This document shows, piece by piece, positions 1 to 12,070 of a stretch of DNA of 64,000 bases. A model generated the notes under the pieces. The model was not told the origin of the DNA. It worked only from the letters and a program-made list of their open reading frames with translations, and ran no database searches. The stretch is from the NCBI RefSeq assembly GCF_057098645.1, contig NZ_CM169472.1. The stretch is one strand, 5' to 3'. A program made the position numbers and the translations under genes. The stretch's first letter is position 1. Each line of letters opens with the position of its first letter.

Positions 1-1331
1 AGCTGGAACGCAATCATCCCAACGATGGCACCGACAGTGCCGAGGATGGTTTCCATCATGGTCCAGGTTTTCAGCGTTTCGGCTTCGGTCGCGCCGGTAA
101 ATTTACCGAACAACCAGAAACCAGCGTCGTTAACGTGGCTGACAACAATCGAACCACCGGCGATACAAATCGACAGCGCCGCCATTTGCGCACCGGAGTA
201 GTTCAGTTGTTCAATGACTGGCATCACCAGTCCCACCGCCGTTAAACAGGCAACGGTGGCAGAACCCTGAATGATGCGCACTGCAGCGGCCAGCACGAAG
301 CAGGTGATAGCAATCGGCAGGCCCATGCCGGTTAACGCTTCGCCCAGTGCCGGACCTACGCCAGAGTCAACCAGCACCTGTTTGAACACGCCGCCCGCAC
401 CAATCACCAGCAGAATGATCCCCGCCGGTTGCAGCGCGTGACCGCAAATCTCCATCACTTTGTCTTTTGGCATGCCCTGACGCATTGCCAGGCCATAAAT
501 CGCTACCAGACAAGCAACCAGAATTGCGGTAAACGGATGACCAATAAACTCGAACCATTCGTAAGCGGTAGAGCCTTCTGGCACAAAACGCGCGGCAATG
601 GTTTTCAGCCCCACCAGCACCAGCGGCAGCAGGATCAGCGACAGGCTGAATCCGAAGGACGGCATTTTGCCTTCGCCGAGATGCGGCTCGCTGATGTCGT
701 CAGGAATATGCAACTCCACGTAGCGGCTGATGAAGTTACCCCACAGCGGCCCGGCAATAATCATTCCCGGAATTGCCGCACACAGGCCAATCAGGATCAT
801 CCAGCCAAAATCGGCGTTCATCTGCGATGCCAGCAGCATTGGCGCTGGCCCTGGCACCAGGAACGCCGCCGCTGCCGCCACGCCTGCGAATAATGGGATT
901 ACCAGCTTCACCAGGTTCGTACCGGTGTGGCGCGCCATTGAGAAAGCAACGCTAATCAGCAGAACAATCGCCACTTCAAAGAACAGCGGTAGCGCACAGA
1001 CCAGCCCCGCAAGGCCGATGGCATAATGCGCGCGGCTGTGACCGAAGGATTTAAGCATTTTGACGGCAATCTGATCGACTGCGCCGGTTTCATGTAAGAT
1101 CTTGCCAAACATAGCTCCCAGGGCGACAACCACCGCCAGGAAGCCGAGGGTGCCTCCCATCCCTTTTTCCATCGTCGCTGCGATTTTATCGAGCGGCATA
1201 CCGGAAAAAAGGCCAGCCCCCATGGACACCACCATTAAAGCCAGGAAAGCGTGCATACGCGCCTTCATGACTAAAAACAGCAGCAGTAAAACAGACCCTA
1301 CTGCTGTTAAAACAAGCGTTAATGTAGTCAC
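1..1331 (-). CDS. gntU: Gluconate:H+ symporter (GntP family), 5' portion; gene continues beyond window start
   Basis: Reverse-strand translation from GTG at 1331 gives MTTLTLVLTAVGSVLLLLFLVMKARMHAFLALMVV... with no stop to position 1; sits 4 nt downstream of the gntK stop, as in the gntRKU operon. Confidence 0.85.
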   Translation of the reverse strand, partial: MTTLTLVLTAVGSVLLLLFLVMKARMHAFLALMVVSMGAGLFSGMPLDKIAATMEKGMGGTLGFLAVVVALGAMFGKILHETGAVDQIAVKMLKSFGHSRAHYAIGLAGLVCALPLFFEVAIVLLISVAFSMARHTGTNLVKLVIPLFAGVAAAAAFLVPGPAPMLLASQMNADFGWMILIGLCAAIPGMIIAGPLWGNFISRYVELHIPDDISEPHLGEGKMPSFGFSLSLILLPLVLVGLKTIAARFVPEGSTAYEWFEFIGHPFTAILVACLVAIYGLAMRQGMPKDKVMEICGHALQPAGIILLVIGAGGVFKQVLVDSGVGPALGEALTGMGLPIAITCFVLAAAVRIIQGSATVACLTAVGLVMPVIEQLNYSGAQMAALSICIAGGSIVVSHVNDAGFWLFGKFTGATEAETLKTWTMMETILGTVGAIVGMIAFQ

Positions 1332-1334
1332 TAC

Positions 1335-1862
1335 TTATTTGCCTTTTTTAATAACCTCAATGGTGCTTGCCACAACACCTTCCAGCGGTTGATCGATATC
1401 CACCACCAGTACATCGGTTTCGTCCGCACCCGGCTCCTGCAGCGTTTCAAACTGCGTCACCAACATTTGGGTTTTAAAGAAATGGCCTTTGCGCGCTTTC
1501 AGGCGGCTTTCAATCACATCAAAATCGCCTTTCAGGTAGATGAAAGAGAGATTCGGATTACCTTCACGCAGCAAGTCGCGATAGTGTTTTTTCAATGCAG
1601 AACAGACGATCAGTGACACTTTATTAGTGCGCTGCATAGCAAACGCGGCGTCGTTCAGCGCCTGCAACCACGGTTTGCGATCATCGTCATTCAGCGGTTC
1701 GCCAGACGCCATTTTTTCGATATTGCGCCGTGGATGGAGGAAATCGCCATCAAGAAACGCGGCATGAAGTTGATGCGCCACTTCACTTGCGACCGCAGAT
1801 TTGCCGCTGCCCGATACGCCCATCAAGACGTAAATGTGGTGATCATGGTTAGTCGTGCTCAA
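1335..1862 (-). CDS. gntK: Gluconokinase (175 aa)
   Basis: ORF track 1335..1883; Walker A GVSGSGKS; start moved to the TTG giving MSTTNHDHH; lies between gntR and gntU. Confidence 0.9.
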   Translation of the reverse strand: MSTTNHDHHIYVLMGVSGSGKSAVASEVAHQLHAAFLDGDFLHPRRNIEKMASGEPLNDDDRKPWLQALNDAAFAMQRTNKVSLIVCSALKKHYRDLLREGNPNLSFIYLKGDFDVIESRLKARKGHFFKTQMLVTQFETLQEPGADETDVLVVDIDQPLEGVVASTIEVIKKGK

Positions 1863-1892
1863 AGTGGTGCCCCCACAATACAAGAATTAAAA

Positions 1893-1921
1893 ATGTTACG
1901 GGTAACTGTTATCGGTAACAT
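1893..1921 (-). promoter_or_regulatory. GntR operator palindrome in the gntK promoter region
   Basis: Near-perfect palindrome ATGTTACGGGTAACTGTTATCGGTAACAT between gntR stop and gntK start. Confidence 0.55.
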
Positions 1922-2000
1922 TGTCCAGCCGGACATTATCAGAAGCAATATCCATCCGTGCCTTAAGTGTATAAGTGTGAGCTACTTCAAATTTGTGGGC

Positions 2001-2996
2001 TTAAATAGATCCGCCCGGTGACAAGGTGAAACCTAAATCTAACATTTTCGGTGTCACAGATTCGCCACGAATACGCGCCAGCAGGCGTTCAGCGCCAATA
2101 CTGCCCATCCGCTCACGCGGCGTCAGCACGCTCGCAAGTCGTGGCTCCATCACCTGACCAATGTCATGACCGTGGAAACCGGCAATCGCCATATCGTCAG
2201 GAACTTTTAACCCCAGACGCTGACATTCAAACGCCGCGCCGACCGCCAGGTCATCATTAGTACAGAACACGCCATCCAGCTGCGGATATTCTCGCCGCGC
2301 CTGGCGAATCAGTTCAATACCGGAAGAGTAAGAAGAAGATTGCTCAACCATCACGCTATACGGCACCAGGCCTGCATCCAGCATCGCCTGTTCGTATCCC
2401 TTCTGTTTGATGATAGTACGTTCGTCGAGACGTGCGCCGAGATAGGCAATGTGGCGATGGCCGCGAGCAATAATGGCGGCGGTCATCTGGCGTGCCGCTT
2501 CAAAGTTATCAAAACCGACGGCGATATCGAGGCACGGCGACTTGCTGTCCATCAGTTCCACCACGGGAATACCCGCCACTTCAATCATCTTTAAGGTGCG
2601 CGGCGTGTGGGTACGTTCGGTGAGGATAAGTCCGTCGATATTCCATGAGAGCATTGATTCGAGACGTTCTTGCTCCATTTCCGGTTTATAACCGTAGTGC
2701 GCCAGCATGGTCTGATAACCGTGCGCGTCGGTGACACTTTCGATTCCGCGTAATACTTCCGCGAAAACCTGGTTGGTGAGAGAAGGTAACAGGACGCCAA
2801 TCGCCCGGCTGGTGGCGTTAGAGAGGATATCGGGCGCACGATTGGGAATATAGCCCAGTTCATCAAGAGCCGCGGCAATCTTGCCGCGTAGAGCGACGGA
2901 AACCTGCTCCGGGTTGCGTAAAAAACGGCTGACCGTCATTTTGGTCACGCCTACACGGTCAGCCACATCCTGAAGTACGGGTCTTTTCTTTTTCAT
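2001..2996 (-). CDS. gntR: LacI-family gluconate repressor
   Basis: 331 aa ORF; N-terminal HTH (VTKMTVSRFL) and periplasmic-binding-protein-like sugar domain; position upstream of gntK. Confidence 0.9.
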   Translation of the reverse strand: MKKKRPVLQDVADRVGVTKMTVSRFLRNPEQVSVALRGKIAAALDELGYIPNRAPDILSNATSRAIGVLLPSLTNQVFAEVLRGIESVTDAHGYQTMLAHYGYKPEMEQERLESMLSWNIDGLILTERTHTPRTLKMIEVAGIPVVELMDSKSPCLDIAVGFDNFEAARQMTAAIIARGHRHIAYLGARLDERTIIKQKGYEQAMLDAGLVPYSVMVEQSSSYSSGIELIRQARREYPQLDGVFCTNDDLAVGAAFECQRLGLKVPDDMAIAGFHGHDIGQVMEPRLASVLTPRERMGSIGAERLLARIRGESVTPKMLDLGFTLSPGGSI

Positions 2997-3219
2997 CGTC
3001 CTGAAGGTACAAAAGAGATAGATTCTCTTAGTTTAACACGGACGCATCAGAACCTTCCCGGGGAAAACAGTGCTTGTTTACAATTATTAGATATACACTA
3101 AATCAATTGCATCGCATTGTGCTAACGACGCGGCAAAACCCCGGAAGCGTACATCAGCACGCGACCGGAGCGAGCGAGGAAGCCTGCAAAAAGGCAGGCT
3201 TCAAAGATGCCGTTGAGCT

Positions 3220-3915
3220 TTAAACCGGCGGCAGATCGAACAGTAACACTTCGCTGTCGCTATCCGCATGGATGGAGATTGCCTGCTCATCCCAGATTGC
3301 CAGACCATCGCTGGTCGAGGCTTTCACGCCGTTAATGGTGACATTGCCTTTCACCACCTGGATCCAGACGCGGCGTTCAGCGGCAATCTGATGCACCGAC
3401 TGCTCATCTTTCAGCAACGCCCAGCGGTACAGTTCCATATCCTGATGCACTTTCAATGAACCATCTCGCGCATCTGGCGAAAGCACCAGTTGTTTGCCCT
3501 GTACAGCATCGAAGCGACGCTGTTCATAACGCGGCGTAATACCATTTTCTTCAGGCATGATCCAGATCTGATACAGATGCAGACGCTCGGTGCTGCTTGG
3601 GTTGTACTCTGAGTGACGAATACCCGTACCCGCACTCATAATCTGGAACTCGCCCGCCGGAACCTGCTCTTTATTGCCCATGCTGTCCTGGTGCTCAACA
3701 GTACCTTCCAGCACGTAGGTCAAAATTTCCATATCTTTATGCGGGTGAGTGCCGAAGCCCTGCCCTGCTTCAATCACGTCGTCGTTAATCACGCGCAGCG
3801 CGGAGAAGCCCATAAAGTTCGGATCGTAATAGTTGGCAAAAGAGAAAGTATGCCAGGAGTCCAGCCAGCCATGATTTGCATGACCACGTTCATTTGCTTT
3901 GCGTAAGTAGATCAT
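3220..3915 (-). CDS. yhhW: Pirin-like cupin protein (quercetin 2,3-dioxygenase family)
   Basis: 231 aa ORF with cupin His motifs (HPHKDMEILTYVLEG); conserved position after gntR. Confidence 0.8.
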   Translation of the reverse strand: MIYLRKANERGHANHGWLDSWHTFSFANYYDPNFMGFSALRVINDDVIEAGQGFGTHPHKDMEILTYVLEGTVEHQDSMGNKEQVPAGEFQIMSAGTGIRHSEYNPSSTERLHLYQIWIMPEENGITPRYEQRRFDAVQGKQLVLSPDARDGSLKVHQDMELYRWALLKDEQSVHQIAAERRVWIQVVKGNVTINGVKASTSDGLAIWDEQAISIHADSDSEVLLFDLPPV

Positions 3916-4037
3916 TTGTATTCGCCCCCTGAATGATTTCGATGGGCTTAGTGTGGACCCGATCTGCCTGGGATGATAGAGGGTGAAAATTGACCCCTCT
4001 GTTCAAAAAAATTGAACTATTCGAGGGGCCATCAAAC

Positions 4038-5075
4038 TTACTTCGCGAGAGTCACTGTGGAGGGAGAGGCTTGCTCGAATCCGCGTTCAAGGATTTCCAG
4101 ATTCGTAAGAACTTCAGATTCCTTGACGTAATTTGGCGCACCGTGGGTGATGGTTTGATACAACGCATCATAAACGCGCCCGTAATCGCCCATCTCCGGC
4201 TTCATCTCTTCTCTGACCGTCACGCCCTCGTCATTGACATACTCCAGCACACCGACCGAATCATCCGCTGCGAATCCCGGTTCGCCCGGCATAATATTAG
4301 CCTTCAGGCTGGTTTCCTGCTGGTCGATACCGTATTTAATAAACGAACCTTTCTTACCGTGAACGATAAATTTCGGATAATCGATTTTCACCAGATGGCT
4401 GGTTTTGACGATGGCTTTCAGGTCGCCATAAAACAGTTGCGCTTCAAAGGTGTCGTCAGGATTGGCTTTATTACGCAGGCTGCGGATGTCATAAGCGACG
4501 TGATCCGGGCGACCGAACAGAGAAATAATCTGGTCCATCGTATGCACACCAAGGCCATAGAACGCGCCATCCTGCGGCAGCCCAGGTTTGGTTTCTGCCA
4601 CCGGGCGGTAATAGTCAAAATGGCTTTCCACTTCAACAATCTCTCCCAGCTTACCGCTTTCAATCGCTTTTTTCGCCGTCAGGAAGCAGGAATCAAAGCG
4701 ACGATTCTGATACGGCGTGACGGTCAGCCCTTTGCTTTTCGCCAGTGCAAACAGCTCCTTCGCCTGGGCAAGCGTCGGGGTGAACGGTTTTTCGACCAGC
4801 ACATTTTTCCCGGCTTCCAGCGCGCGTTTCGCGTACTCGAAATGGCTGTCCGCGTGGGTGCAGACAACAACCAGCTTAACATCGGGATCGTTTAGCACTT
4901 CGTCGAGATCGCTGGTGAAATGGATATGAGAGTAAATGGGAGCCTGTTCTTCCGGCTTCGCATGGCGACGAAAAATATGCGCGACATGCCAGCTATCCTT
5001 GCGGTTAAGTACATACGGCAGATGGTAACGGGTGGTGCTTTTGCCGAAGCCAATAAAGGCGCAGTTGATGACCAT
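4038..5075 (-). CDS. yhhX: Gfo/Idh/MocA-family NAD(P)-dependent oxidoreductase
   Basis: 345 aa ORF; N-terminal Rossmann motif (INCAFIGFGKST). Confidence 0.8.
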   Translation of the reverse strand: MVINCAFIGFGKSTTRYHLPYVLNRKDSWHVAHIFRRHAKPEEQAPIYSHIHFTSDLDEVLNDPDVKLVVVCTHADSHFEYAKRALEAGKNVLVEKPFTPTLAQAKELFALAKSKGLTVTPYQNRRFDSCFLTAKKAIESGKLGEIVEVESHFDYYRPVAETKPGLPQDGAFYGLGVHTMDQIISLFGRPDHVAYDIRSLRNKANPDDTFEAQLFYGDLKAIVKTSHLVKIDYPKFIVHGKKGSFIKYGIDQQETSLKANIMPGEPGFAADDSVGVLEYVNDEGVTVREEMKPEMGDYGRVYDALYQTITHGAPNYVKESEVLTNLEILERGFEQASPSTVTLAK

Positions 5076-5196
5076 GATTTCGTCCTTTTTAAGGTGGTTA
5101 TTTACACCTTAGCGCAAAGCGGACGTGGTTCCTACTGGAGTGCGCATAACGAACACAAGCCCCCCCGTGGATAAATTGAGAACGAAAGATCAAAAA

Positions 5197-5286
5197 AAAA
5201 GCCAGCACCCGGCTGGCTAAGTAATACTGGAAGCAATGTGAGCAATGTCGTGCTTTCAGGTTCTCCGCGAGGGTCTTCCTGATCGC
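5197..5286 (-). ncRNA. ryhB: RyhB iron-responsive small RNA
   Basis: Reverse complement reads GCGATCAGGAAGACCCTCGCGGAGAACCTGAAAGCACGACATTGCTCACATTGCTTCCAGTATTACTTAGCCAGCCGGGTGCTGGCTTTT, ending in a GC-rich hairpin plus U-run; located between yhhX and yhhY. Confidence 0.85.
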
Positions 5287-5325
5287 GAGACAATAATAAT
5301 CATTCTCATTCGCACTTGTCCAACA
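5287..5325 (-). promoter_or_regulatory. ryhB promoter with Fur box
   Basis: Directly upstream of the RyhB 5' end on the minus strand: GAATGAGAATGATTATTATTGTCTC resembles the Fur consensus GATAATGATAATCATTATC. Confidence 0.55.
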
Positions 5326-5407
5326 CTTTTTGCAAAAAAATGCATTTGACTCGCATTTGAAAGTCAATGATGTTGAAAGGGACATTTACCCCAAAGAGGA
5401 CAAAGGA

Positions 5408-5896
5408 ATGAGTGAGATAGTAATACGCCACGCAGAAACACGGGATTACGAGGCCATTCGGCAGATTCACGCCCAGCCAGAGGTGTATTACAACACGCTA
5501 CAGGTGCCTCATCCTTCCGATCATATGTGGCAGGAGCGACTCGCCGATCGTCCCGGCATCAAACAGTTAGTTGCCTGTATTGATGGAACCGTCGTGGGTC
5601 ACCTCACCATTGACGTGCAACAGCGCCCACGCCGCAGTCATGTTGCCGATTTTGGTATCTGTGTCGACTCCCGTTGGAAGAATCGCGGCGTCGCCAGCGC
5701 CCTTATGCGAGAGATGATTGAAATGTGCGACAACTGGTTGCGGGTAGATCGTATCGAGCTAACGGTGTTCGTCGATAACGCGCCAGCAATTAAGGTCTAT
5801 AAAAAATACGGCTTTGAAATTGAAGGGACTGGTAAGAAGTACGCATTGCGTAATGGTGAATATGTCGATGCGTATTATATGGCGCGGGTGAAGTAA
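5408..5896 (+). CDS. yhhY: GNAT-family N-acetyltransferase (162 aa)
   Basis: ORF track 5330..5896; start moved to ATG giving MSEIVIRHAETRDYEAI; acetyl-CoA motif region RGVASALMREMIE. Confidence 0.8.
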   Translation: MSEIVIRHAETRDYEAIRQIHAQPEVYYNTLQVPHPSDHMWQERLADRPGIKQLVACIDGTVVGHLTIDVQQRPRRSHVADFGICVDSRWKNRGVASALMREMIEMCDNWLRVDRIELTVFVDNAPAIKVYKKYGFEIEGTGKKYALRNGEYVDAYYMARVK

Positions 5897-6132
5897 GATA
5901 GTGCCCTTTTTCTGAGATGGAAAAAGGGTGTCATTCAAAATCGGCATACCTTCCTTTAATGTATTTATTTTCCCAATAAATATATTGAGATTTACCTCAT
6001 AATTACTTCCTAAAGTGTAATATTTTATTTTTTAATATATACGCCTACAATTTCCTGGAGTAAATAAATAAAAATTAACAAGCATAATAGTGCCATTGAT
6101 AAAATAGCATGCCATAAAAGGACTTTTCAGGG

Positions 6133-6878
6133 ATGAGTAATATTGTTTATCTGACAGTAACGGGAGAACAACAAGGAAGCATCTCCGCAGGTTGTGGGAC
6201 TACTTAATCTATAGGTAATCGCTGGCAGAGCGGGCATGAGAATGAAATATTTACATTCTCACTCGCAAATAGCATTACTAATACGGGGCTTGGTTCACAG
6301 TTACAGGGTATAACATTTTGTAAATTAATTGATAAAAGCACTCCATTACTTATTAATTCCATTAACAATAATGAGCAATTATTTATGGAATTTGACTTTT
6401 ATAGAATCAATAGATTTGGCAGATGGGAAAAGTATTATTATATACAACTAAGAGGCGCTTTTTTATCGGCTATTCATCATCAGATCATTGAAAATCAACT
6501 GGATACAGAAACAATAACTGTTAGTTATGAATTTATCCTCTGTCAACATCTTATCGCAAATACCGAGTTCAGCTATTTGGTTGGCACTCCCTGAAAATTA
6601 TAACCGTTTGTTTTTACCAAATTCAAAAAACCAAACAAATAATGGTTTCAAAACGTTAAACAGCAAAGCTGTTGGCAGGCTACTTGCTGCTGGTGGCGTA
6701 TACAATGGGAACATTGAAGGTTTCAGAGATACTGCGGAAAAACTGGGTGGAGATGCAATCAAAGGCTATGATCAAATACTAAATGAAAAAACAGCGGGCA
6801 TAGCGATAGCAACAGCATCTATTCTTTTAACAAAGCGTTCTAAAGTTGATACATATACAGAAATAAATAGTTACTTAG
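6133..6878 (+). pseudogene. yhhZ: Hcp-domain-fused toxin gene, 5' part (Hcp-ET type T6SS effector); in-frame TAA at 6205-6207 and a frameshift in the 6527-6594 overlap
   Basis: ATG 6133 encodes MSNIVYLTVTGEQQGSISAGCGTT then stop; same frame reopens 6208..6594 (SIGNRWQSGHENEIFTFSLANSITNTGLGSQLQGITFCKLIDK...), then shifts to the 6527..6925 frame and runs into the IS5 end; AT-rich; positional equivalent of K-12 yhhZ (symbol assigned by position, from memory). Confidence 0.6.
6875..6878. repeat. Target-site duplication TTAG (left copy) of the IS5 insertion
   Basis: TTAG immediately precedes the IS left terminus GGAAGGTGCGAATAAGC at 6879; identical TTAG follows the right terminus at 8075. Confidence 0.7.
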
Positions 6879-8074
<1,196 letters not shown>

Positions 8075-8078
8075 TTAG
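8075..8078. repeat. Target-site duplication TTAG (right copy)
   Basis: See left copy at 6875-6878. Confidence 0.7.
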
Positions 8079-8515
8079 GCAAACTTAGAGGTCAACAAAA
8101 ACTTCTTGATGGCATAGACATAATAGAAATAAAATACATTAAGAGACCTTCAAAAGACTTAGCTAACTTACGAAAGGAGTTTAACAAAACTGTAAGAAAA
8201 AATTTTCTTATCAAACTTGCAAAAACCTCCGAAGCATCTGGAAGATTCAACGCCGAAGACCTTTTAAGAATGAGAAAGGGCTATGTTCCTCTAAATTATA
8301 ATGTTCACCATAAACTATCTCTAGATGATGGTGGTACTAATGATTTCGAAAATTTAGTATTAATCGAAAACGAACCATATCATAAAGTTTTTACTAACAT
8401 GCAATCACGAATAGCTAAGGGAATATTAGTAGGTGAAAGCAAAATCACTCCCTGGGCCATTCCATCTGGCTCAATTTATCCTCCCATGAAAAATATTATG
8501 GAACCCACAAAATGA
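8075..8515 (+). pseudogene. yhhZ: Hcp-ET toxin gene, 3' part encoding an HNH-type nuclease domain
   Basis: Removing the IS and one TTAG copy joins ...SYL to GKLRGQQKLLDGIDIIEIKY... in frame; C-terminal motif NVHHKLSLDDGGTNDFENLVLIENEPYH is HNH-like; stop TGA 8513-8515 overlaps the next ATG. Confidence 0.65.
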
Positions 8516-9006
8516 TGACTAAAACCCAAATAAACAAATTAATAAAAATGATGAATGATTTAGACTATCCATTTGAAGCACCGCTCAAGGAATCATTTAT
8601 TGAAAGTATAATCCAAATAGAATTTAATTCTAATTCAACTAATTGCCTGGAGAAGTTATGTAATGAAGTTAGTATTCTTTTTAAGAATCAACCTGATTAT
8701 CTTACTTTTTTAAGAGCAATGGATGGATTCGAAGTTAATGGATTGCGATTATTTAGCCTCTCGATTCCAGAACCTTCAGTTAAAAACCTTTTTGCCGTAA
8801 ATGAATTTTATAGAAATAATGATGATTTCATAAACCCTGATCTACAAGAACGGTTAGTGATCGGGGATGATAGCATTTCAATATTTACTTATGACATTAA
8901 AAGTAACTTTTTTGAAATTAGAGATAATATTGGCACAGAAAATATATTCAGTTCGTTTAGTGATTTCTCTTCATTCTTAAACGAAATCATGGACAGTTGT
9001 TCATAA
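8512..9006 (+). CDS. Putative cognate immunity protein of the HNH toxin (164 aa, acidic)
   Basis: ATG overlaps the toxin stop (ATGA); intact ORF MMTKTQINKLIKMMNDLDYPFEAPLKESF...; AT-rich; immediately downstream and co-directional with the toxin; positional equivalent of K-12 yrhA. Confidence 0.55.
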   Translation: MMTKTQINKLIKMMNDLDYPFEAPLKESFIESIIQIEFNSNSTNCLEKLCNEVSILFKNQPDYLTFLRAMDGFEVNGLRLFSLSIPEPSVKNLFAVNEFYRNNDDFINPDLQERLVIGDDSISIFTYDIKSNFFEIRDNIGTENIFSSFSDFSSFLNEIMDSCS

Positions 9007-9455
9007 TAATCAAAAGGAAACAAAAATCATTGTAAACCATGCCATCTTTTTAGAGATTACCACCAGAAAATTCCTTGTTCGAAATTTAGCAATGCAAGCT
9101 ATGGAAAAACTTACAACGGAACTACACTCCTTAAGTGAGATGGACCGAAGACATGTAGTCTCTATTTTAGCCGAAATAGCTAATGGCTATGATGATTTTA
9201 GTGACATGTTGATTTATTTAGAATTTTACCCAAATCATAAGATTCTGATATCTTAAATAAGAAAATCCCGTTCGAAGTTCTGAAAAAGAAATCACAAAAT
9301 ATTAGCAGATACTTATTTCGTGACTATATCTTATCCGATGAACTTTTTTCAAAACCAGCATTTAATAATATCTTTGACGAAGATGAATGCACCTTTGCTC
9401 AATGTATCACACAGGAATAATAATATAACACTCAACAATAATATTTATTATAATT

Positions 9456-9794
9456 ATGATTACTTATCACGACGCATTCGCGAAAGCGAACCATTACCTT
9501 GATGATGCAGATCTCCCGGTCGTCATTACTCTACATGGACGCTTTAGCCAGGGCTGGTATTTCTGTTTCGAAGCACGAGAATTTCTCGAAACTGGAGATG
9601 AGGCCGCGCGCTTAGCTGGTAACGCACCTTTTATTATTGATAAAGACAGTGGTGAAATTCATTCTCTGGGAACGGCAAAGCCGCTGGAAGAATATCTACA
9701 GGATTACGAAAAAAAAAGGCTACCTTCGGCTTGCCCTGACAAAATAGCCCTCTTCCCACGAAGAGGGCCGCTAACCTTAATACCCCGCAGTTAA
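9456..9794 (+). CDS. yrhB: YrhB-like small protein; as read, 112 aa with a C-terminal extension caused by a 1-nt difference in an A9 tract
   Basis: MITYHDAFAKANHYLDDADLPVVITLHGRFSQGWYFCFEAREFLETGDEAARLAGNAPFIIDKDSGEIHSLGTAKPLEEYLQDYE...; A9 run at 9709-9717; with one extra A the frame ends ...KKKATFGLP at TGA 9735-9737 (94 aa). Confidence 0.7.
   Translation: MITYHDAFAKANHYLDDADLPVVITLHGRFSQGWYFCFEAREFLETGDEAARLAGNAPFIIDKDSGEIHSLGTAKPLEEYLQDYEKKRLPSACPDKIALFPRRGPLTLIPRS
9738..9768 (-). terminator. Rho-independent terminator downstream of ggt
   Basis: Stem GCCCTCTTC / GAAGAGGGC (9747-9755 and 9760-9768) followed on the minus strand by a T-rich run (plus-strand AAAAT 9741-9745). Confidence 0.6.
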
Positions 9795-11510
9795 ATCATC
9801 CACCGAGCGCGGGTCGGATGCACCATACAGCTCACCGTCCGGCCCAACCATAATGCTTTGTGTACTGCCCATCGCCTCTTTCAGCGCCACTTTCTGACCT
9901 TTTGCTTCCAGCAGCTTGAGCGTATCCGGGCTAAACCCTTTTTCGACACGCAGCTCGTCCGGCAACCACTGATGGTGGAAACGCGGCGCATTGGTCGCTT
10001 CGGCGACGTTCATGCCATAATCGATGCTATTCACCACCATTTGAAGCACTGTAGTGATGATCCGGCTCCCGCCAGGGCTACCGGTGACCAGCCAGGTTTT
10101 ACCGTCTTTCACCACAATGGTGGGTGACATCGATGACAGCGGGCGTTTGTTCGGCCCGACGGCGTTGGCATCACCGCCCACCAGCCCGTAAACGTTCGGT
10201 ACGCCCGGTTTGGCGGAGAAATCATCCATCTGGTTATTAAGCAGAATACCGCTCTCGCCCGCGACAATGCCCGTACCGAAGGTGGTGTTCAGCGTATAGG
10301 TCACCGCCACCGCGTTACCATCTTTATCCACCACTGAGTAATGGGTAGTTTGATTACTCTCATAAGGCGCAAGCTTGCCAGGGCGAATCTCGCTGGACGG
10401 TTTCGCTTTATTGATATCGATTTGCTCGGCAATAGATTTGGCATAGGCTTTATTGGTCAGCGCCTGCCACGGGACTTTCACAAAATCCGGGTCGCCAAGA
10501 TATTCCGAGCGGTCAGCGTAGGCATATTTCTCCGCTTCTGCCATGATCTGCATCGCGTCGGCGCTGCCAAAACCGTATTTCTTCATATCGAAGTTTTCCA
10601 GAATATTGAGGATTTGTACGATATGGATCCCGCCGGAGGATGGCGGTGGCATGGAGTAAACCTGATACCCGCGATAATCGCCGCTTATCGGTGTGCGTTC
10701 GACCGCTTTATACGCCGCTAAATCTTCTTTAGTGATCAGGCCACCGTTTTTCTGCATCTCCTGGGCAATCTGTTCCGCTATCGTGCCTTTGTAGAATTCG
10801 TCCGGGCCGTTTTCGGCAATCATCTCCAGGCTCTTTGCCAGGTTCGCCTGCACCAGCTTGTCGCCCTTTTTCAGCGGCTCGCCCTCTTTCCAGAAGATAG
10901 CCTTGCTGTTTTCGTGATTCGGCAGCACTTCGCTCCCGTAGGTTTTGAGATCGTCAGCCAGCGCGTCGTTAACGATAAAACCATCGCGTGCCAGTTTAAA
11001 CGCTGGCTGCACCACTTTGTTCAACGGCATTGTGCCGTATTTATCCAACGCCAGCGAGAAACCAGCGACCGTACCGGGCGTGCCGGAAGCCAGATGCGAA
11101 GTGAGTGATTTTTTGCTGTCCGGGTTGCCCTGGTCATCAAGGAACATATCGCGGGTCGCTTTGGCGGGTGCCATTTCGCGGAAATCGATAGCGGTGGTAT
11201 TGCCATTTTTCGAGCGGATCAGCATAAAACCACCACCGCCCAGATTCCCTGCCTGCGGATGCGTTACCGCCAGCGCGTAGCCCACAGCCACGGCGGCATC
11301 AACGGCATTCCCGCCCTCCTTGAGGATATCCACCCCCACCTGAGTGGCAGTAGCATCTACAGATGCCACCATCCCCTGTTTCGCGCGTACCGGATGGAAG
11401 ACATCTTCCTCCACGCCGTAAGAAACAGGAGGCGCGGCGGCGGCGCTAAAACAACTTCCTGAGAGCAGAGCAGCAATAGCCACCCGGCGTAAAAACGTCG
11501 GTTTTATCAT
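9777..11510 (-). CDS. ggt: Gamma-glutamyltranspeptidase (periplasmic, signal peptide)
   Basis: ORF track 9777..11537; start moved to MIKPTFLRRVAIAALLSGSCFSAAAA; conserved GGT motifs including the autoprocessing threonine region (NQTTHYSVVD). Confidence 0.9.
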   Translation of the reverse strand: MIKPTFLRRVAIAALLSGSCFSAAAAPPVSYGVEEDVFHPVRAKQGMVASVDATATQVGVDILKEGGNAVDAAVAVGYALAVTHPQAGNLGGGGFMLIRSKNGNTTAIDFREMAPAKATRDMFLDDQGNPDSKKSLTSHLASGTPGTVAGFSLALDKYGTMPLNKVVQPAFKLARDGFIVNDALADDLKTYGSEVLPNHENSKAIFWKEGEPLKKGDKLVQANLAKSLEMIAENGPDEFYKGTIAEQIAQEMQKNGGLITKEDLAAYKAVERTPISGDYRGYQVYSMPPPSSGGIHIVQILNILENFDMKKYGFGSADAMQIMAEAEKYAYADRSEYLGDPDFVKVPWQALTNKAYAKSIAEQIDINKAKPSSEIRPGKLAPYESNQTTHYSVVDKDGNAVAVTYTLNTTFGTGIVAGESGILLNNQMDDFSAKPGVPNVYGLVGGDANAVGPNKRPLSSMSPTIVVKDGKTWLVTGSPGGSRIITTVLQMVVNSIDYGMNVAEATNAPRFHHQWLPDELRVEKGFSPDTLKLLEAKGQKVALKEAMGSTQSIMVGPDGELYGASDPRSVDDLTAGY

Positions 11511-11629
11511 CGTTATTCTCCAGAGATTAAGGGGCAACCCCAGCTAAGCCTGGTATATAACTCTGAATTAATCCTGATGATTGCAGGAAAGGAGTAAACT
11601 TAAAGAATATCTTCAGAGGAGGATACGCG

Positions 11630-12070
11630 ATGAAACGACTTCTGATTCTTACGGCACTCCTGCCGTTTGTCGGCTTTGCACAGCCCATTAATACTCTGAA
11701 CAACCCTAACCAGCCGGGGTATCAGATCCCCAGTCAGCAGCGGATGCAAACCCAGATGCAGACTCAGCAAATCCAGCAAAAAGGGATGCTGAATCAGCAA
11801 CTGAAAACGCAAACTCAGTTGCAACAACAGCATTTAGAAAACCAGATAAACAATAATTCTCAGCGGGTGTTGCAGTCACAGCCGGGGGAGCGAAATCCCG
11901 CCCGGCAGCAAATGCTGCCCAACACCAATGGCGGGATGTTAAACAGCAACCGTAATCCGGATAGTTCGTTGAATCAGCAGCATATGTTGCCGGAGAGGAG
12001 AAACGGCGACATGCTGAATCAGCCCGGCACGCCGCAGCCTGATATACCGTTGAAAACTATTGGGCCGTAA
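11630..12070 (+). CDS. yhhA: Secreted Q/N-rich protein of unknown function (DUF2756-like)
   Basis: 146 aa ORF with signal peptide [17 protein letters not shown] and glutamine-rich low-complexity body; divergent from ggt. Confidence 0.75.

Follow-up and report, generated by a model that had tools for sequence, protein, structure and literature searches.

The ryhB small RNA locus and its Fur-box promoter between yhhX and yhhY in an Escherichia coli chromosome

The spacer separating yhhX from yhhY on this chromosome raises the question of whether its minus strand encodes a complete and conventional copy of the small RNA RyhB, promoter and terminator included, or whether the RNA-like features found there belong to something else, such as a short protein gene or the control region of a neighbouring gene. 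Few bacterial sRNAs have been studied as thoroughly as RyhB. The original prediction was of a 90-nt RyhB with its terminator, preceded directly by a Fur-box-like element, serving as an orientation landmark within standard core genome. We analysed this proposal in the whole 64-kb stretch of DNA, referred to here as the window, in which the span 5197..5325 takes in the RyhB transcript together with the Fur box and the core promoter. Almost certainly, the locus is the canonical E. coli ryhB, encoding a Fur-repressed, Hfq-dependent, trans-acting, iron-sparing sRNA, and none of the results obtained speaks against this.

Identity and extent of the RNA

In a scan against Rfam 15, positions 5257..5193 of the minus strand matched RF00057 (RyhB) with 83.1 bits against a gathering score of 55 (E = 3.6e-14). 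The match spans model positions 1-67 of 67, which places the RNA in the family, and it is the sole gathering-level Rfam match in the whole window, which holds one RyhB copy. The original prediction had named this covariance scan as a check on its call, to be abandoned if no RyhB match appeared; RF00057 was found at the predicted place.

The Rfam model represents just the 3' two-thirds of RyhB, and the 5' end was set by alignment to K-12 MG1655. Over window positions 5150-5420 on the minus strand, the two sequences agree at 100% of bases from a point before the -35 hexamer as far as the T-run of the terminator, including the 5' part of the RNA that falls outside the model. The alignment to K-12 ryhB, also suggested beforehand, thus found every base the same across promoter, RNA and terminator. 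Differences in the 271-nt region are limited to two bases of the yhhX-proximal spacer, 5163 and 5161, about 30 nt past the terminator. They form part of a run of seven G residues on the minus strand at 5160..5166 (GGGGGGG here, GGGAGTG in K-12), a change that gives rise to another, weak hairpin call of terminator-like form (5169..5154).

The K-12 MG1655 record describes a ‘small regulatory RNA RyhB’, an ncRNA feature (ryhB, b4451) of 95 nt at 3580922..3581016 on the minus strand, flanked by yhhX (b3440) and yhhY (b3441). By colinear alignment, this 95-nt feature corresponds to window positions 5286..5192, its 3' limit being the last T of the run, at 5192. The classical 90-nt form occupies 5286..5197 on the minus strand and reads GCGATCAGGAAGACCCTCGCGGAGAACCTGAAAGCACGACATTGCTCACATTGCTTCCAGTATTACTTAGCCAGCCGGGTGCTGGCTTTT; it is defined by its identity to b4451, by the RF00057 match and by its recurrence in 5,424 of 5,426 complete E. 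coli genomes. Its lower coordinate is the one given earlier, and the proposed length of 90 nt holds for this classical form, whereas the current K-12 RefSeq record annotates 95 nt.

The flanking open reading frames agree with the Rfam match and the K-12 identity in placing RyhB on the minus strand between yhhX and yhhY, as had been proposed. Downstream and on the same strand lies yhhX, encoding an oxidoreductase (4038..5075, a 345-aa ORF that maps to yhhX of both K-12 and O145). The divergent neighbour, yhhY, encodes an N-acetyltransferase (5408..5896, plus strand) and maps to the 489-bp yhhY of K-12, the gene being annotated under the same name in O145. The yhhX-ryhB-yhhY arrangement is colinear with O145:H28 (99.9%) and with K-12, where BLAST aligned window positions 2770..6879 with positions 1..4106 of the K-12 locus at 97.6% DNA identity. 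Compared with K-12 RyhB (b4451; RF00057), therefore, the copy studied here has the same -35 hexamer, Fur box, -10 hexamer, transcript, terminator and position between the two genes, without any difference inside the element; the nearest ones are the two spacer bases and then an IS5 element about 1.6 kb away.

Comparison with other iron-responsive sRNAs leads to the same assignment. Pseudomonas PrrF1 and PrrF2 are Fur-repressed sRNAs that lower the mRNAs of iron-using proteins, and they are functional analogues of RyhB. We rescanned positions 4900..5600 on both strands with permissive Rfam settings, and the only other RNA signal in this interval was a sub-threshold match to the PrrF model (RF00444) at 5191..5322 on the minus strand, overlapping RyhB and its promoter. 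Its score (21.3 bits, E = 0.37) is far below the gathering score of 90, and PrrF membership was rejected, the match being treated as chance or terminator-driven. The likeness of ryhB to PrrF1/PrrF2 is thus one of function, not of homology. Other enterobacteria carry second RyhB paralogues, such as Salmonella RyhB-2/IsrE, that share the conserved core modelled by Rfam. Unlike these, the copy described here is the syntenic one between yhhX and yhhY, and the only RF00057 match in the window.

Promoter and Fur box

A consensus scan located a sigma-70-like promoter on the minus strand, consisting of the -35 hexamer TGGACA (5322..5317), an 18-nt spacer and the -10 hexamer TATTAT (5298..5293), with 10 of 12 positions matching the consensus. 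The -35 hexamer is the same in K-12, and the -10 hexamer stops 6 nt short of the RyhB 5' end (5286). Overlapping the -10 hexamer is a 19-bp near-palindrome at 5289..5307, whose plus-strand sequence, GACAATAATAATCATTCTC, shares 16 of 19 positions with the Fur-box consensus GATAATGATAATCATTATC. Nowhere else in the 64-kb window does that consensus match with three or fewer mismatches; shuffled sequence gave a mean of 0.03 matches, with a single shuffle out of 100 containing any. Counted from the RyhB 5' end, the box takes in positions -3 to -21, and with them the -10 hexamer; repressors that occlude RNA polymerase usually sit here.

Read from its sequence, this element is a predicted Fur box lying over the ryhB promoter, and the binding itself is known from the identical sequence in K-12. 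There, the ryhB promoter was given a score of 25.2 bits for a cluster of Fur sites at about -15, and a gel shift with a ryhB promoter oligonucleotide demonstrated that Fur binds it (Chen et al. 2007, PMC2189734). The Fur-box-like element said to lie directly upstream of the RNA is therefore borne out.

On a different reading of the same site, the sRNA is not the main target of the box, which would chiefly control either yhhX, downstream, or the divergent yhhY. These Fur sites were indeed associated with yhhX in an early in vivo selection study (PMC2189734), and only 122 bp separate the yhhY ATG from the 5' end of RyhB. However, the box covers the ryhB -10 hexamer, where repressors classically bind, RyhB and yhhX have an intrinsic terminator between them, and the literature also argues against yhhX or yhhY as the main target of the box (PMC2189734). 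We regard control of these genes as its chief role as very improbable, and take ryhB to be the regulated gene, though the box may have a secondary effect on yhhY.

RNA architecture, coding potential and target pairing

Starting from its 5' end, the transcript comprises a stem-loop at nt 1-20 (5267..5286, minus strand), in which nt 1-4 pair with nt 17-20 in both the MFE and the centroid folds. It is followed by a single-stranded core or seed region at nt 37-57 (CGACAUUGCUCACAUUGCUUC; 5230..5250, minus strand), the most conserved portion of the RF00057 consensus, which includes the sodB-pairing nt 38-46 (5249..5241). Next comes an A/U-rich linker, AGUAUUACUU, read directly from the sequence at 5228..5219 on the minus strand. 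Ahead of the terminator as it is, the linker is a putative Hfq-binding site, in keeping with what is established for Hfq-dependent sRNAs. The Rho-independent terminator (5192..5218, minus strand) was recovered by the terminator scan, by the Rfam structure line and by the MFE fold. It has a 7-bp stem with five G-C pairs at 5218..5200, a 5-nt loop and nine T residues at 5200..5192. At the level of sequence, the RNA therefore displays the architecture of an Hfq-dependent sRNA, with a U-tailed terminator and an A/U-rich stretch upstream of it.

The overall fold of the 90-nt RNA was no more stable than that of shuffled sequences (z = -0.67, with 49 out of 200 shuffles folding as well). Fold energy was consequently discarded as independent evidence for RyhB, although the terminator and the core hairpin were recovered. 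Given that it is indistinguishable from shuffles in this respect, support for the 5' stem-loop, which falls outside the Rfam model, comes from the K-12 identity rather than from the fold.

Open reading frames also cross the locus, and it could be argued that one of them is a real protein gene to which the RNA features are incidental. The six-frame list contains two minus-strand ORFs, at 5098..5385 (95 aa) and 5132..5293 (53 aa), and frame 0 of RyhB is open over its full length. Their anatomy is at odds with a coding role, since both open at or ahead of the transcription start and run on through the terminator; the 95-aa ORF has its start at 5385, before the promoter as well as the transcription start (5286), and traverses both hairpin and T-run. 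Neither is annotated in K-12 or O145, and the match to Rfam in structure and sequence, together with the Fur-box promoter, suffices to explain the conservation, with no need for a coding role. Given the anatomy of the ORFs and the missing annotation in K-12 and O145, we rejected the protein-coding reading, whose chance of being right we put close to nil, in favour of a non-coding RyhB.

A related possibility is that the locus does something beyond the textbook, either as a dual-function RyhB that is also translated or through strain-specific virulence-gene targets in an O145:H28-like pathogen. The core does contain a candidate nine-codon frame in frame 1 (nt 41-70: AUU GCU CAC AUU GCU UCC AGU AUU ACU UAG), with a non-canonical AUU start. 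This frame lacks both a canonical start codon and an evident Shine-Dalgarno sequence, and the 64-kb window held no pointers to new RyhB targets. Such an additional role seems highly unlikely, leaving the conventional base-pairing sRNA as the reading that we follow.

As for that base pairing, we used RNAduplex to compare the RyhB core (nt 30-62) with K-12 sodB from -60 to +40. RyhB nt 38-46 (GACAUUGCU, 5249..5241) and sodB -4..+5 (AGCAAUGUC) form nine contiguous Watson-Crick pairs across the AUG, so the core is complementary to the sodB translation-initiation region. The duplex reaches -18.0 kcal/mol in total, with further interrupted pairs extending to the Shine-Dalgarno region. Among 500 dinucleotide shuffles, 41 did as well, so that the energy stands out only modestly, and it is to be read as consistency, not proof. 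A run with full-length RyhB gave an unrealistic end-to-end duplex with sodB (-35 kcal/mol; 24 of 500 shuffles as good) and was set aside.

In K-12, RyhB is under Fur and iron control and has about 20 direct target mRNAs, including sodB and sdhC; translation of the targets is blocked and their decay by the RNase E degradosome stimulated, with Hfq needed for rapid decay (PMC8544716). On the strength of the literature on the identical K-12 sequence, the circuit would operate as follows. When iron is sufficient, Fe2+-Fur would occupy the box and block ryhB transcription. When iron is scarce, Fur would leave the promoter and RyhB would accumulate. Its core would then pair with mRNAs that encode non-essential iron-using proteins (sodB, sdhCDAB and others), at the regions where translation is initiated, and RyhB with Hfq would block their translation and recruit the RNase E degradosome, leading to mRNA decay. 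We infer that ryhB behaves likewise in the present strain, apparently an O145:H28-like E. coli; both its accumulation under iron limitation and the Hfq- and RNase E-dependent decay of its targets are expected by virtue of the identity to K-12.

Genomic setting, distribution and significance

Window positions 1..12000 are 99.94-99.98% identical to E. coli O145:H28 RM13514, save for one insertion. This is an IS5-family element of about 1.2 kb (6879..8074), with terminal inverted repeats GGAAGGTGCGAATAAG and CTTGTTCGCACCTTCC, a TTAG duplication on both sides (6875..6878 and 8075..8078) and a 326-aa transposase ORF on the minus strand (7026..8006) from the ORF list. The gene that it interrupts is yhhZ/tssD(Hcp)-like and lies downstream of yhhY; ryhB, about 1.6 kb away, is left untouched. 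RM13514 and K-12, both otherwise colinear, are without IS5 at this site. In the annotation of RM13514, the nearest relative with a sequenced genome, two features of its locus (2882..3165 and 4106..5288) are degraded: yrhB is frameshifted, and the yhhZ/tssD-like gene is already a pseudogene, frameshifted and with an internal stop. Given the 99.9% identity there, the window probably carries the same decay of the yhhZ/tssD-like gene and yrhB, at about 6130..9800.

Among 5,426 complete E. coli genomes, the 90-nt RyhB was present in 5,424, always on the chromosome and with a median of one place per genome. Identity over the 90 nt was at least 99% in 5,360 genomes, whereas only 2,110 reached 99% over the 271-nt region with flanks. 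RyhB is thus better conserved than its surroundings. The description of the segment as standard core genome accordingly holds for the RNA, though the wider neighbourhood departs from it in part, with its IS5 copy in the yhhZ/tssD-like gene.

Some departures from this pattern were observed. Two of the 5,426 genomes lacked a RyhB match, and the remaining 5,424 contained 5,429 places, a few genomes having two or three. E. coli 23AR0151 (NZ_CP195448.1, 310823..310921) carries a 99-nt variant in which a 9-nt unit, ACATTGCTC, occurs three times instead of two in the target-pairing core, with the rest of the promoter and RNA unchanged.

RefSeq/PGAP records of O145 genomes and of the other genomes sampled had no feature under the RyhB match; of the records examined, K-12 MG1655 alone carried ryhB as an ncRNA feature. 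The missing PGAP label reflects a gap in the annotation of a universally present sRNA and is not evidence of absence. As ryhB goes unlabelled in most E. coli RefSeq/PGAP records, annotation alone would miss the locus.

The RyhB element is already known, and an identical copy adds no new biology. As a landmark, it does what was claimed for it: ryhB places the segment in the E. coli chromosome, within the order gntU-gntK-gntR-yhhW-yhhX-ryhB-yhhY-yhhZ-yrhA-yrhB-ggt. For the strain itself, the conserved promoter, Fur box, RNA and terminator point to an intact iron-sparing circuit.
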